In this document: in pieces, positions 42,751-53,037 of the stretch
Position numbering within the stretch: the first letter of the stretch is position 1
Layout of the letters: every line of letters starts with the position of its first letter
Translations under genes and position numbers: made by a program
Notes under the pieces: model-generated
The model's database searches: none
Told to the model about the DNA's origin: nothing
What the model saw: only the letters and a program-made list of their open reading frames with translations
Source: an uncultured Acidobacteriota bacterium
Lineage (GTDB): Bacteria > Acidobacteriota > Blastocatellia > RBC074
Reading direction: 5' to 3'
Assembly (NCBI GenBank): GCA_963796275.1
Contig: CAWCKY010000006.1
Location: forward strand, 2,592,001-2,656,000
Length of the DNA stretch: 64,000 nt

Positions 42751-42800
42751 CTGTTGGTGAGCAACAGAAATTTAAACCAAGTCCTGTTGATAGTCAACAT
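42751..42800 (-). promoter_or_regulatory. Sigma70-like promoter with two CTGTTG-N5-CAACA(G/T) operators
   Basis: Minus strand TTGACT-17-TAAATT; palindromes at 42751-42767 and 42784-42800. Confidence 0.75.
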
Positions 42801-43529
42801 AGAAAGGTAGGGACTCATCAACCGGTGTGCAGGTGTACGGAAAAGATTCAGCGGCAGGCAATGTGCAGGCAGCAGCGCATTTTGTGCTCACTGCCACCGG
42901 ATCCTGATGGTTCTCCCGCGATTTTGGTGATGCGAATTTGCTCGCCCAGGACGCTCCTCAGACATCCCAGGATTCTGTCCGATCACTTGTCCCATACAAG
43001 AAAATTATCGCGCGATTTCGCCTTATCTGGCCGGAAGTCTTATACAAGAGACACTCGCGGATGATTGAACGGGAGTCAACCTGCTTAATCAAGTTGGCTT
43101 ACGGGTTAGGTGCTAGTGTTTAGCCGGCTTTATCAAGAGCGCATCAGTTATCACTTCCAGGTCGGTCCGCCAGCGGCACTTGTTCACCAATCCATTACCC
43201 TTATCCGTATATCCCACCATCCACTTGACGCCTTTGTAAGGATATTTTTCATCCATCGCGAAAGACGTATAAGCTGCACACCAGCAGATCGTAAGATCAT
43301 TTGTCCTGCTCACCCCCAGGTTTCTATCCTTGCGCATCGAGTGCTCGTCCGCCAGGCGATCCCTGCCGTTAGATTTATTGATGCTCACATGCTTTGCATC
43401 CGCCTCCTAGGTTTTGCTCACCTTTCCACTCATCTATCAGCTCACCCGTTTCGGATGGGTAGATCGCGAATTGCTCGCTCCATCTGGATCGGTTTTTGCA
43501 TCCGCTACGCAAAAATCTAAACAAATGGG

Positions 43530-43575
43530 TTGACCTTATGATATCTGTCTATATACTATCTGTGCATGACAGATA
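43530..43575 (+). promoter_or_regulatory. Sigma70-like promoter with TATCTGT-N5-ACAGATA operator spanning the PadR start codon
   Basis: TTGACC-16-TATACT; perfect palindrome at 43557-43575 whose spacer contains the ATG at 43566. Confidence 0.7.
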
Positions 43576-43919
43576 TAAACACCAGAGCGCTCGATCGTGA
43601 GCTGAAGCGGGGGGCCGCGGAGCTGCTCATCCTTTCACTGCTCGACGCGCGCCCCCGCCACGGCTATGAGCTGAGTAAACTGATCAACACGCGCTCCGGC
43701 GGCCAGATCACGTTTCACATAGATTCCCTCTATCCCTTGCTGTATCGCCTAGAGGAGCGTGGATGGATCAAGGGTGCCTGGGTCGAAAAGCCAGACGAGA
43801 GACGCCGCCGCTTCTACAAAGTCACGCCTGAGGGCCGGCGCGTGCTTGCTCAGCAACGCAAGACCTGGGCGGCATTCGTGGAGGCCGTGCGGCTCATCAC
43901 GGGAGACGAACATGCCTGA
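43566..43919 (+). CDS. PadR-family transcriptional regulator
   Basis: ELKRGAAELLILSLL..PRHGYEL..SLYPLLYRLEERGWI..RRRRFYKVTPEGR. Stop overlaps the ADOP start (ATGCCTGA). Confidence 0.92.
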   Translation: MTDINTRALDRELKRGAAELLILSLLDARPRHGYELSKLINTRSGGQITFHIDSLYPLLYRLEERGWIKGAWVEKPDERRRRFYKVTPEGRRVLAQQRKTWAAFVEAVRLITGDEHA

Positions 43920-50068: not shown

Positions 50069-50079
50069 GGAGGTTCAAC

Positions 50080-52776
50080 ATGGCGCAGTTCCGTTCCCTG
50101 GCTTCGAGATTCTTCGCCCTGTTCCGGCGGCCTGAGTTGAGCCAGCGTATAGATGAAGAACTCCAGTTTCACCTCCAAATGCAGGCGGAAGAAAACATCC
50201 GGCGGGGCATGAATGTGCCGGACGCCCAGGCAGCGGCCCGTAGCAAGGTTGGCAACATAACGCATGTAACTGAGGAGGTGTATCGCATGAACACGCTCTC
50301 GTTCCTCGAAGAAATCGTACGCAATGTTCGGTTTTCCCTGCGCACGCTGCGTAAGAGCCCGGGCTTCACCGCTGCGGCGATTTTCACCCTGGCCATCGGG
50401 ATCGGCGCCAACACGGCAGTCTTCAGTATCGTGGAGGGGATTCTGCTGAAGCCCCTGCCATATTCGGAGGCGAGCCGGCTAATTTCGGTACAGCACACCG
50501 CGCCTGGAGCCCCAGGGTTGATGAGCGCCTCGGGCGACTTGCGGCTTTCCGCCTCCATGTTCTTTACCTACGCGGACAGCAACCGGAGTTTCGAAGCCAT
50601 TGGAGCGTGGACCACCGCGGCAGCCACGGTTACGGGCCAGGGCGAGCCGGAAGAAGTGCGCACCATAGTTGTGACGAAAGGCGTGCTGGAGGCGCTGGGC
50701 GTCAAGCCAGCGGCTGGGCGCTGGCTCGCGGAGGCGGATCAGTCGCCCGGCGCAGCCCGTGCAACGATGCTGTGCTATGGGTATTGGCAACGGCGGTTTG
50801 GCGGGGATCAGGCAGTAATCGGGAAGAGCCTGACCGTAGATGCGCAACCGGCCCAGATCGTGGGCGTGATGCCGGCCGGGTTCCGCGCTGTAGACACGGA
50901 GGCGGAACTGATACTGCCGTTTCGGTTCAATCGCACGCAACTGATTCTGCCCGGCTTTTTTCTTCGGAGCGTCGCGAGGCTAAAACCGGGTGTGACGCTG
51001 GAGGCAGCCAGCGCCGACATTGCGCGGATGGTTCCCGTATGGATGAGTTCGTGGCCCGCGCCCCCGGGAGTCGATCCGCGAAGCTGGGAACAATGGAGGA
51101 TCACGCCGGCCCTTCGGCCACTTCGACAAGACGTTGTCGGGCGTATTGAACAGGGTCTATGGCTGGTGATGGGGACCATGGGGATTGTCCTGCTGATTGC
51201 CTGCGCCAATGTCACGAACCTGCTGTTGGTGAGGGCCGAAGCGCGGCAGCGGGAATTGGCCCTGCGTGCGGCGCTGGGTGCTGGTTGGGGGCAGATTGTC
51301 CGCCAGCTGCTGGTGGAAAGCCTGGCGCTAGGGTTGTTGGGCGGGCTGCTGGGTGTGGCCATTGCCGCAGGGCTGCTGAAGGCAGTGGTGGCCATCGGTC
51401 CAGCGAGTTTGCCCAGGTTGAATGAGATATCCATGGATGGGCAGACGGCGGTTTTTGCGTTGGGGGTTTCGCTGACCGCGGGTTTCCTGTTGGGACTGAT
51501 CCCGGCCTGGCAATATGCGCGGCCGAAGCTTGGTCCGGCGCTGCGGGCAGGAGGCAGGTCGGCCACCGATAGCCGGCAGAAGCATCGGGCGCAGAATGTA
51601 CTGGTGGTGGCGCAGGTAGCACTGGCGCTGGTGCTGCTGGTTTGTTCGGGGTTGATGATTCGCACGTTTCAGGCGTTGAACCGTGTGCAGCCGGGCTTCA
51701 CCGAACCGGAACAGATTCAGACACTGCGGATCGCCATTCCACCGGCCTTGATTGCCGAGCCCGAACGAGTGGCGCTAACTCAGCAGCAGATCCAAGAGAA
51801 GCTGGCAGTGCTGCCGGGCGTATCGTTGGTAGGTTTTGCCAGCACGATACCGACAGATGGGCTGTCGCCGGATTGGGACGGCATAGAAGTGGAAGGCCGG
51901 CCTCAGCTGCCTGGGCAGTTCCCGCCGATGCGGCGTTTCAAGGACATCTCGCCTGGGTTCCTGGAAGCCATGGGCACGCGCCTGATCATTGGCCGCAGCT
52001 ACGAGTGGACCGATTTACTGGACCGGCGGCCCGTGATCCTGATCTCCGAGAATCTGGCGTGGGAGTATTGGGGAGATCCTGGCGCCGCACTCGGTAAGCG
52101 TATTGGGTACGCCGGGAAATTTCGCGAGGTGATCGGCGTCGTGCAGGACGTTTATGATAACGGCGTGCAAGATGTGGCCCCGGCGACCGTCTACTGGCCA
52201 ACGTTCGATGCGAACAAGTTTACGTCCGTTACCCGCAATGTAACCTTCGCGCTCCGAAGCGGGCGCACGGGGAGCGCAGGATTTCTACGCCAGGTGGAGC
52301 AGGCAGTGTGGTCCGTGAATGCCAATCTTTCGGTGGCAGACGTACAGTCCATGGCGGATCTGCACTCCCGGTCGATTGCGCGAACCTCATTCACACTGGT
52401 GATGCTGGCGATCGCGGGCGTAATGGCATTGTTGCTCGGCGTCGTCGGCATCTACGGCGTGATCGCGTACACGGTAGCGCAGCGGAGAAGAGAGATCGGT
52501 ATCCGTTTGGCGCTGGGCGCGGCGCCGTCGACGGTAACTCGCATGTTTCTTAGGCACGGAGTGATCCTTTGCGCCATCGGTTGTGTTTTGGGGCTTGGGG
52601 GAGCGGTGGCATTATCGAGTCTGATGAAGTCGCTGCTGTTCGGCGTGACGCCGCTGGATCCGATGACATACGCCGTCATGCCTGTCGTATTGTTGGTGGC
52701 GGCACTAACCGCGTGTTACCTCCCTGCGCACCGGGCCGCGGCCGTGGACCCGGTGGAGACTCTGCGCGGAGATTAA
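50080..52776 (+). CDS. ADOP-family duplicated permease
   Basis: RBS ggagg; prefix [73 protein letters not shown]. Confidence 0.92.
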   Translation: MAQFRSLASRFFALFRRPELSQRIDEELQFHLQMQAEENIRRGMNVPDAQAAARSKVGNITHVTEEVYRMNTLSFLEEIVRNVRFSLRTLRKSPGFTAAAIFTLAIGIGANTAVFSIVEGILLKPLPYSEASRLISVQHTAPGAPGLMSASGDLRLSASMFFTYADSNRSFEAIGAWTTAAATVTGQGEPEEVRTIVVTKGVLEALGVKPAAGRWLAEADQSPGAARATMLCYGYWQRRFGGDQAVIGKSLTVDAQPAQIVGVMPAGFRAVDTEAELILPFRFNRTQLILPGFFLRSVARLKPGVTLEAASADIARMVPVWMSSWPAPPGVDPRSWEQWRITPALRPLRQDVVGRIEQGLWLVMGTMGIVLLIACANVTNLLLVRAEARQRELALRAALGAGWGQIVRQLLVESLALGLLGGLLGVAIAAGLLKAVVAIGPASLPRLNEISMDGQTAVFALGVSLTAGFLLGLIPAWQYARPKLGPALRAGGRSATDSRQKHRAQNVLVVAQVALALVLLVCSGLMIRTFQALNRVQPGFTEPEQIQTLRIAIPPALIAEPERVALTQQQIQEKLAVLPGVSLVGFASTIPTDGLSPDWDGIEVEGRPQLPGQFPPMRRFKDISPGFLEAMGTRLIIGRSYEWTDLLDRRPVILISENLAWEYWGDPGAALGKRIGYAGKFREVIGVVQDVYDNGVQDVAPATVYWPTFDANKFTSVTRNVTFALRSGRTGSAGFLRQVEQAVWSVNANLSVADVQSMADLHSRSIARTSFTLVMLAIAGVMALLLGVVGIYGVIAYTVAQRRREIGIRLALGAAPSTVTRMFLRHGVILCAIGCVLGLGGAVALSSLMKSLLFGVTPLDPMTYAVMPVVLLVAALTACYLPAHRAAAVDPVETLRGD

Positions 52777-52982
52777 GGCTGAAGAGTTACCAACTTGGTT
52801 GCTGGTGGGTGAAGCGCTAGGCCACACGGCAAATTTGATTCGAGTTGTTAGCAGGCCCAACTCGACATCATTTCAGTCCGGCTGCCGAAATAATACTCAG
52901 GACTCAACGCTATCTGGAACCCCTCTCCGATAACTGATGTTGTTGATGAAGAAAAACCTGAGTTTGAATGCAATCTCACTCT

Positions 52983-53037
52983 AGACCTTGACATTCTAGG
53001 TCTCCATACATACCCTACACCTAGAATTTCTAAGTGT
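52983..53037 (+). promoter_or_regulatory. Sigma70-like promoter with two ACCTAG-N5-CTAGGT-type operators
   Basis: TTGACA (52988-52993)-17-TACCCT (53011-53016); agaccttg-acatt-ctaggtct and acacctag-aattt-ctaagtgt. Confidence 0.75.

Follow-up and report, generated by a model that had tools for sequence, protein, structure and literature searches.

We analysed a 64,000-nt stretch of DNA, here called the window, from an uncultured Acidobacteriota bacterium (contig CAWCKY010000006.1, positions 2,592,001 to 2,656,000), in which the region from 39.7 to 56.1 kb consists of four modules, each with a small PadR regulator gene followed by one or two ADOP permease genes. The palindromes at the four padR promoters are predicted from the sequence to be autorepression operators whose arm classes are set mainly by the two residues before the conserved motif G(S/T)xY, and we give this reading a probability of roughly 0.7. 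The motif starts the recognition helix, and the two residues preceding its Gly are referred to as columns 43 and 44. To our knowledge, the PadR proteins are a very large family of regulators, of which only a few operators are known and for which there is no recognition rule. A literature search, in which the coverage of subscription journals was thin, retrieved no report that deals with PadR-ADOP operators or proposes a recognition code for PadR.

The first-pass annotation of this DNA had located four palindromes and had read the recognition helices of modules 1 to 4 as FQLNQWTMY, ITFHIDSLY, LEMKYGTLY, and LEVEQGSLY, and each of these was found again at the same place. The operator arms are clearly different among the four window PadRs, as it had claimed. 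The layout that it proposed for modules 1, 3, and 4 was also recovered, with one dyad over the -35 element and a second one after the -10 element, 33–34 bp apart (centre-to-centre spacings of 33, 33, and 34 bp, respectively).

The promoter of module 1 lies on the minus strand (TTGACT-17-TAAATT, 42797 to 42769). Its site 1 (42784..42800) reads CTGTTG-N5-CAACAT on the plus strand, with one mismatch, and contains the -35 element TTGACT (42792-42797), while site 2 (42751..42767) is a perfect CTGTTG-N5-CAACAG between the -10 element (42769-42774) and the GGAG ribosome site and ATG at 42743. The modules 3 and 4 are on the plus strand. In module 3, the promoter TTGACA-17-TATACT (49652-49680; 11 of 12 positions match) has its -35 element TTGACA (49652-49657) inside site 1 (49648..49666, CTTATTG-N5-CTATAAG, one mismatch), and site 2 (49681..49699, CTTATAG-N5-CTATAAA, one mismatch) follows directly after the -10 element TATACT (49675-49680). 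Site 1 of module 4 (52985..53001, ACCTTG-N5-CTAGGT, one mismatch) likewise contains the -35 element TTGACA (52988-52993), and site 2 is at 53019..53035 (ACCTAG-N5-CTAAGT, one mismatch). The module 4 promoter, TTGACA-17-TACCCT, was read by eye; its weak -10 element (53011-53016) matches at 3 of 6 positions and falls below the acceptance level of the scan.

Module 2 is arranged differently. Its promoter on the plus strand (43530..43557, TTGACC-16-TATACT) is followed by a single perfect dyad, TATCTGT-N5-ACAGATA (43557..43575), which starts at the last base of the -10 element and holds the ATG (43566-43568) in its spacer. Since this ATG is 9 nt after the -10 element, the mRNA is probably leaderless or nearly leaderless. 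An extra TATCTGT half-site at 43542-43548 lies within the promoter, so that padR2 has three half-sites of this type (43542, 43557, and 43569, the last inverted). The dyad is retained with one mismatch in the ortholog L076, which also keeps the half-site arrangement. Elsewhere in the padR2 subfamily, the ATG is covered by AATATGT-N9-ACATATT, or there are direct repeats of TATATGG.

At up to two mismatches, CTGTTG-N5-CAACAG occurs seven times in the window against 1.66 expected, and none of 100 shuffles reached seven. For CTTATAG-N5-CTATAAG there were three matches in the window against 0.04 expected (0/100 shuffles), and the perfect TATCTGT-N5-ACAGATA is a single copy in the whole genome. The window shuffles and the genome-wide scan together rule out chance for modules 1, 2, and 3. 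The window test of ACCTAG-N5-CTAGGT is weak alone, with 0.60 expected and at least two matches in 8 of 100 shuffles; in the 9.46-Mb genome, this dyad occurs only five times at up to one mismatch, and two of these are the pair 34 bp apart before padR4. A dual-site scan, in which four half-sites were scored jointly (7-nt arms, N5, spacing 30-37), gave scores of 26, 25, and 24 for modules 3, 1, and 4, compared with a mean of 20.2 (sd 0.9, maximum 24) for 399 random upstream regions. A third CTTATAG-like site, CTTATTG-N5-CTATAAA at 62758-62776, stood out in the window and was rejected as likely chance because the genome holds 12 matches at up to two mismatches against 14 for a direct-repeat control. 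It lies in an AT-rich spacer about 235 nt ahead of an ORF starting near 63011.

The palindromes might instead act as RNA hairpins in the 5′ leader, that is, as attenuators or stability elements rather than as protein-binding DNA. Site 2 of each module would be transcribed and could form a hairpin of 6–9 bp with -5 to -11.5 kcal/mol. This explanation fails because site 1, which has the same sequence, overlaps the -35 element upstream of any transcript, because the fold energies are ordinary in comparison with shuffles (z of 0.19, -1.53, -0.49, and -0.54), and because the region 39000-57000 has no Rfam match. The co-variation of the arms with the DNA-binding helix, described below, also speaks against it, and we reject it as extremely improbable.

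Three sequence sets were used to follow the layout across the family. The first comprised every PadR-like ORF of this genome (43 matches, about 33 of the TIGR03433 type), and the second 76 stretches around matches in 13 related genomes (14 of 21 genomes had matches when G004, the sequence of which was unused, is counted). The third contained 80 public Acidobacteriota loci, among at least 599 relatives and including one Opitutaceae record; these loci were found with an alignment of seven closer sequences and are biased to relatives of PadR3 and of the LNxGT types. Filtering for a full-length match and at least 130 nt of upstream DNA left 185 genes and dropped contig-end genes and split genes, among them padR4, which is absent from the family statistics for this reason.

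TTGAC was present upstream of 101 of the 185 PadR genes, and in 61 of these 101 it occupied positions 5-9 of a 19-mer with at least four of six tested dyad pairs. Among the first 107 PadR upstream regions, 73 had TTGAC and 40 of the 73 had it in a dyad 19-mer, compared with 346 of 2998 control regions with TTGAC, only 11 of which qualified. Within this genome, 15 of 35 PadR upstream regions had a dual-site score of at least 22, against 8% of the 399 controls. A second dyad, 26-45 bp downstream and matching the right-half half-site of site 1 at 11 or more of 14 positions, was found in 26 of the 61 promoters, and the same search with half-sites of PadRs having other contact residues succeeded in 5.2% of 2948 trials. 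The centre-to-centre spacing was 33 or 34 bp in 55 of 69 cases, and site 1 had a median position 53 nt upstream of the start codon. The operator thus overlaps the -35 element and/or the start region of the regulator's own promoter, and this is conserved in relatives. In a comparison of module 3 with L029 and L077, orthologs with protein identities of 93% and 87%, the only conserved block was the one from the -35 element to site 2; in L077, position 2 of the arm has changed from T to C in three of the four half-sites and the dyad of site 1 is preserved. Because of the family-wide layout, the second-site enrichment, the fixed spacing, and the ortholog conservation together, the dyads are most likely functional operator sites of a self-regulated promoter rather than leftovers.

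Operators were called for 104 promoters, 61 anchored on the -35 element and 43 by a dual-site score of at least 23 (12 of 28 in this genome, 36 of 79 in the relatives, and 56 of 78 at the public loci). In imperfect dyads on contigs C1 and C7 of G000 and at L046, site 2 is the reverse complement of site 1 (CTTGATTATCTACAAG, CTTGTAGATAATCAAG), whereas both sites have the same orientation in the group with the helix LAVNQGTLY, so that the family has no fixed orientation of one site relative to the other. The public record L123, titled as an Opitutaceae bacterium, has a PadR of the LNQGT type with a CCTGTTG-N5-CAACAGA dyad over the -35 element. Its occurrence outside Acidobacteriota reflects either horizontal transfer or a wider range of the family.

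To compare arms with helices, the half-sites were written outside-in over nine positions, of which T5 and G7 are nearly invariant and the others define classes. The helix xLNQGTxY goes with the half-site CCTGT(T/G)G, xxNYGTxY with CCTAT(T/G)G, LEMKYGTLY with C(T/C)TATAG, and xLNEGTVY with CCT(T/A)TGG. Among the helices ending in GSLY or GS, VE(E/Q/D)GSLY goes with CCCTAG or ACCTAG, VNQGS and VDTGS with CTGTAG, VDHGS with GGTAG, VGQGS with TGTCG, and VSDGS with CTCGGT. The claim of the first-pass annotation that arm and helix co-vary is borne out across the 104 called promoters, at the two residues preceding G(S/T)xY. It had proposed testing the mutual information between helix residues and arm bases, and this gave 0.88 bit (z 19.6) for column 44 and half-site position 4, the next value among the 20 columns listed being 0.52.

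The distribution of bases at position 4 was counted over all half-sites of 66 genes of the xxNxGT type. With Q in column 44, position 4 was G in 127 half-sites, T in 36, A in two, and C in three; with Y, it was A in 47 and C in one; with E, it was T in 21 and A in 11; and with M, it was T in four. The residue before the conserved Gly is thus predicted to pair with arm position 4 as Q-G, Y-A, and E-T/A. When the operator consensus of one promoter was compared with other promoters, a match at 12 or more of 14 positions occurred in 62.6% of the 2158 pairs that agree in the four contact residues, against 6.9% of the 8554 pairs that differ in them. A further rule, by which the Ser or Thr after the Gly would set position 6, was dropped, since LEEGT and MKYGT proteins have A at this position and since position 6 correlates with many subfamily-defining columns.

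Because relatives share both helix and arm traits, changes were counted on a tree that was built without the helix columns, and 86 columns with at least four changes were compared. The minimum number of changes was 14 for column 44, 21 for position 4, and 26 for both jointly, so that 9 of the 14 changes in column 44 coincide with a change at position 4. This places column 44 first of 86 for co-change with position 4 (median fraction 0.25), and column 43 ranks first for position 2 (7/11) and second for position 3 (5/11). Within xxNxGT, all four changes in column 44 coincide with a change at position 4.

These counts bear on the explanation that the dyads are PadR operators whose differences between paralogs are mere drift accompanying duplication, with shared descent as the only cause, no usable rule, and cross-binding among paralogs. 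The ranking of columns 43 and 44 on a helix-free tree and the four coincident changes inside xxNxGT argue against it. So does the retention of the CCTGT(T/G)G class with the LNQGT helix across Acidobacteriota orders and in the one Opitutaceae record, and, in the available account of the Bacillus subtilis PadR-DNA structure, columns 43 and 44 correspond to residues at the bases and backbone of the major groove (PMC5728393). On the other side, one helix string can occur with different arms, the half-sites of one promoter often differ at one or two positions, and the VEQ and VEE helix types have a common CCTAG core. Among 52 sister pairs, the arm had changed in 10 of 10 pairs with a change in columns 43/44 against 20 of 42 of the others (Fisher p 0.003), a result that is confounded: it is not separable from overall divergence because columns 87, 101, and 66 score as well or better. 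The tests on independent pairs were also below significance. Taken with both kinds of evidence, descent as the only cause is considered unlikely.

The co-variation can be compared with the known structure through the Tyr of G(S/T)xY, which is present in all four window PadRs and at least 90% conserved in a 17-sequence alignment. By the motif and the LmrR alignment, rather than by structural superposition, this residue appears to be Tyr42 of B. subtilis PadR, and if it is taken as such, columns 44 and 43 become the counterparts of His38 and Lys37, respectively. As far as the published description goes, B. subtilis PadR contacts bases with the N-terminal ends of alpha-2 and alpha-3, through Tyr20, His38, Ser39, Gln40, and Tyr42, of which Tyr42 is found family-wide; His38 hydrogen-bonds G9, 5.5 bp from the dyad centre, and the site is CNTGNA-N6-TNCANG (PMC5728393). 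Aligned by the distance from the dyad, with position 4 at 6 bp, the strongest residue-base pair found here would match the known His38 contact.

Several results weigh against the reading of the palindromes as operators with arm classes set by the two helix residues. Operators were callable for only 104 of the 185 promoters (12 of 28 in this genome). The first-pass annotation had suggested that a helix-to-operator code may be readable from sequence, and this holds in that the classes track columns 43/44; it does not hold throughout, as identical helix strings carry different arms. LRVEEGSLY was found with CCCTAG, CCATAG, and ACCCAG arms, some NQ proteins (L078 and L082) have CCTTTAG halves, Q pairs with C where it follows E or P, and the large LAVNQGTLY group has asymmetric sites (CCTGTTG...CAAAAGG). 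The independent pairs on supported branches were too few, with four for Q-G (3.2 the same way, 0 opposite, median p 0.25), only three for Y-A, and only two for E-T, which leaves these comparisons underpowered. If T5/G7 is aligned to T8 of B. subtilis instead, the His38 equivalent falls at position 6, which has weak information with column 44. We infer binding, repression, and insulation from what was observed directly, namely the sequence features and their conservation, enrichment, and co-variation.

The proposal that each module has its own palindrome fails genome-wide, as the module 1 class stands at three other PadR promoters and the module 4 class at four. Five of the 45 genome matches to the module 1 dyad class lay 200 nt or less from a PadR start (direct-repeat control, 0 of 49), as did 6 of the 16 matches to the module 4 class (control, 0 of 6). 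At up to one mismatch, modules 2 and 3 alone have unique dyads. Among the 28 full-length PadRs with enough upstream DNA in this genome, there are 24 helix strings, four of which occur twice, and three helix classes have four members each when broken copies are counted. By this sequence evidence, specificity is by class rather than by module. A perfect CTGTTG-N5-CAACAG also occurs on contig C6 of G000 at about 1909281, with the nearest PadR start 11 kb away, and it may be an additional target for PadRs of the LNQGT class, or a chance match (26 matches at up to one mismatch against 15 for the control).

Two of the modules contain broken genes. In module 4, an in-frame TAG at 53268-53270 replaces a Trp codon of padR4 that is conserved in relatives, and ADOP4 has an in-frame TGA at 54504-54506; since the two stops are different codons, there is no recoding signal, and they represent either a decaying module or assembly error. 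In module 1, ADOP1 is split near 40931-41067 by either a frameshift or an assembly error, and PadR1 has W for the conserved G of 'QGT', T for a conserved P, no conserved W of 'EWG', and a truncated C-terminus, so the module looks degenerate. No sequencing run containing half of the stretch was found with which to compare these breaks, the best share being 0.26. Because their repressor and/or permease is disrupted, modules 1 and 4 cannot count as working insulated pairs, and any activity that their promoters still have would be controlled in trans, by intact paralogs that share the helix.

In the mechanism that we favour, each of the four padR genes in the window opens a padR-ADOP operon and encodes a short repressor of subfamily 2, which would repress its own promoter. 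The operator would be a dyad of 17–19 bp with arms of 6–7 nt and a 5-nt spacer, present twice in modules 1, 3, and 4, with the -35 TTGAC at positions 5-9 of the 19-mer in site 1 and with site 2 right after the -10 element, 33–34 bp on. Occupation of either site by a dimer would exclude RNA polymerase. Module 2 is a member of a divergent subfamily, and its single dyad downstream of the -10 element would act over the start codon of a probably leaderless message. The residues equivalent to Lys37 and His38 would set the arm class, with the His38 equivalent pairing with half-site position 4, and paralogs of different classes would therefore probably be insulated from each other, while paralogs of the same class would probably cross-regulate. 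Release would most likely be brought about by the N-terminal cytoplasmic helical domain of the cognate ADOP, and not only by a small ligand.

The positions of the sites also bear on whether PadR might activate these promoters, or whether another protein might read the dyads. The sign of regulation is a prediction from the sequence, and weak -10 elements could need help, such as that of module 4 with 3 of 6 matches, or those of 23 of the 61 anchored promoters that match TATAAT at no more than three positions. Against this, site 1 over the -35 element and site 2 over the start region are classical positions for steric repression, and since the arm classes vary with the contact residues of PadR, the sites can be tied to the neighbouring PadR. 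The characterised short PadRs such as LmrR and similar proteins are, moreover, autorepressors. We consider a mode other than autorepression improbable.

The identities of the genes rest on curated profiles with cut-offs of 101.8 bits for TIGR03433 and 622.3 bits for TIGR03434; PadR matches in this 9.46-Mb genome number 33. On the minus strand, padR1 (42432..42743) encodes 103 aa and scores 108.1 bits with TIGR03433, and ADOP1 (39682..42400) consists of two overlapping ORFs in different frames (40931-42400 and 39682-41067) that score 401.8 and 439.7 bits with TIGR03434. All the other module genes are on the plus strand. The gene padR2 (43566..43919; 117 aa, 105.4 bits) is followed by ADOP2a (43912..46626; 849.8 bits), the ATG of which overlaps the padR2 stop (ATGCCTGA), and by ADOP2b (46795..49491; 821.2 bits), a tandem copy 81% identical to ADOP2a. 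In module 3, padR3 (49730..50068; 112 aa, 141.1 bits) precedes ADOP3 (50080..52776; 849.5 bits, with Pfam MacB_PCD and FtsX), and in module 4, padR4 (53070..53405), the in-frame TAG of which divides it into pieces of 84.3 and 33.4 bits, precedes ADOP4 (53418..56132), whose TGA leaves pieces of 276.6 and 594.7 bits. PadR1, PadR2, and PadR3 are thus above the TIGR03433 cut-off and PadR4 only when read through the TAG (128.3 bits); ADOP2a, ADOP2b, and ADOP3 are above the TIGR03434 cut-off, and each piece of the split ADOP1 and ADOP4 is below it. The Pfam PadR profile PF03551 scored 70.3 bits with PadR3 and 75.4 bits with PadR2, and MacB_PCD and FtsX were found in ADOP with two stretches each.

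The padR and ADOP genes overlap by 8 nt in module 2 and are separated by gaps of 11, 12, and 31 nt in the others. A remnant of the padR2 3′ end, about 120 nt with a 1-nt deletion, lies ahead of ADOP2b at about 46670-46795, and the duplication therefore began inside padR2 and left ADOP2b without its own padR or promoter. The nearest solved structures by sequence are LmrR chains (116-131 aa; E 3e-12, aligned over residues 17-104), from which the window PadRs are taken to be short, LmrR-like proteins of subfamily 2. Their lengths of 103-117 aa fit this subfamily (about 110 aa, a winged helix and a single C-terminal helix, no large effector domain).

A PadR gene adjoins an ADOP gene in all four window modules, and in the public set (L077-L156), 72 of 78 PadR loci have a same-strand ORF of 75 codons or more downstream of padR. 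At 38 of the 72, padR and ADOP share 4 nt, the stop codon of the first overlapping the start codon of the second (ATGA/GTGA), a junction that suggests translational coupling. Ravi et al. (2024) described HAAS-PadR pairs in which HAAS fused to FtsX-like and MacB/PCD domains is one conserved type, and they proposed that HAAS relays a membrane signal to PadR as an alternative to two-component systems (PMC11237479). The window modules resemble these dyads, as a standalone PadR gene adjoins a membrane protein with a small helical N-terminus; they differ in what is at issue, the available text of that account treating neither operators nor paralog specificity.

The N-termini of the ADOP proteins may be such a HAAS partner domain of PadR. 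All four window N-termini that were tested match the NCBIfam family perm_prefix_1, and the ADOP N-termini share a conserved three-helix region, modelled by AlphaFold as three helices with a pLDDT of 71. Two negative results weigh against this assignment: the gathering threshold of Pfam HAAS PF22564 (27 bits) was reached by none of 60 ADOP N-termini, six of which gave sub-threshold matches (best 18.5 bits, E 0.0026-0.087), and a fold search with the N-terminal model gave no match at E <= 0.001. The HAAS assignment of FtsX/MacB fusions, as the paper describes it, rests on more sensitive profile methods (PMC11237479). A predicted complex of two PadR3 chains with the ADOP3 N-terminus was weak, with a score of 0.55 against 0.26 for the best control; the runs agreed in at least 85% of contacts and the pLDDT of the partner was 66-68. 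Passes at scores up to 0.60 comprised 18 of 157 solved complexes and both of the two mismatches (of 215) that passed.

Among characterised regulators, LmrR of Lactococcus lactis is one of the closest in kind, being a short single-domain winged-helix protein with one C-terminal helix, encoded beside membrane transporter genes (lmrCD); a self-repressed promoter with palindromic sites is the expected mode for such a protein. In LmrR, a pore at the dimer interface serves as the drug sensor, and the usual notation for the LmrR box is ATGT-N8-ACAT. The dyads described here are, in contrast, 7-N5-7, doubled at 33–34 bp, with the -35 element built into site 1, and the partner is an ATPase-less duplicated permease of the FtsX/MacB type with an N-terminal helical domain.

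B. subtilis PadR on the padC operator is comparable in that a dimer reads a palindrome and in that the His38-G9 contact is comparable to column 44 and position 4. Unlike the window proteins, it belongs to subfamily 1 with a large C-terminal effector domain, and its 18-bp site is 6-N6-6 with an even centre; no series of paralogs was compared in that study (PMC5728393). The correlation of recognition residues with operator bases has been studied in the LacI family (PMC2978694), in the MerR family with Prot-DNA-Korr (PMC5045206), and in C proteins (PMC2632904). From what these sources describe, the approach is alike, with self-regulated paralogs, operators predicted upstream, and helix residues correlated with operator bases; the folds and families are others. 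Autorepressed PadR operons beside membrane proteins, HAAS-PadR pairing, and residue-base analyses of LacI, MerR, and C proteins are thus already known.

The findings are ordinary in kind, as both autorepressed PadR operons and the co-evolution of repressor and site have precedents, and their interest lies in the cleanness of the series rather than in a new mechanism. Because the layout is fixed and the operator is built into the -35 element, binding sites can be read from the sequence for about half of the family, and the residue-base pairing gives predictions for point mutants that are sharp and cheap to test.

Soil Acidobacteria have few gene families as expanded, or as poorly understood, as the ADOP permeases. 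As a tentative idea, to which we give somewhat less than even odds, the PadR-ADOP expansion may be a natural library of orthogonal one-step modules, each combining a sensor permease that has an N-terminal transducer with a PadR, in which one or two residues where the recognition helix begins would reprogramme promoter specificity. The residue before the Gly would set position 4 (Gln-G, Tyr-A, Glu-T), and the preceding one would bias positions 2-3. If the classes are truly insulated, they would provide ready-made orthogonal repressor-operator pairs and a case study of how paralogs avoid cross-talk outside two-component systems. If the idea is true, a cell could run dozens of insulated permease switches, and the pairing would be the first recognition code for the PadR family.

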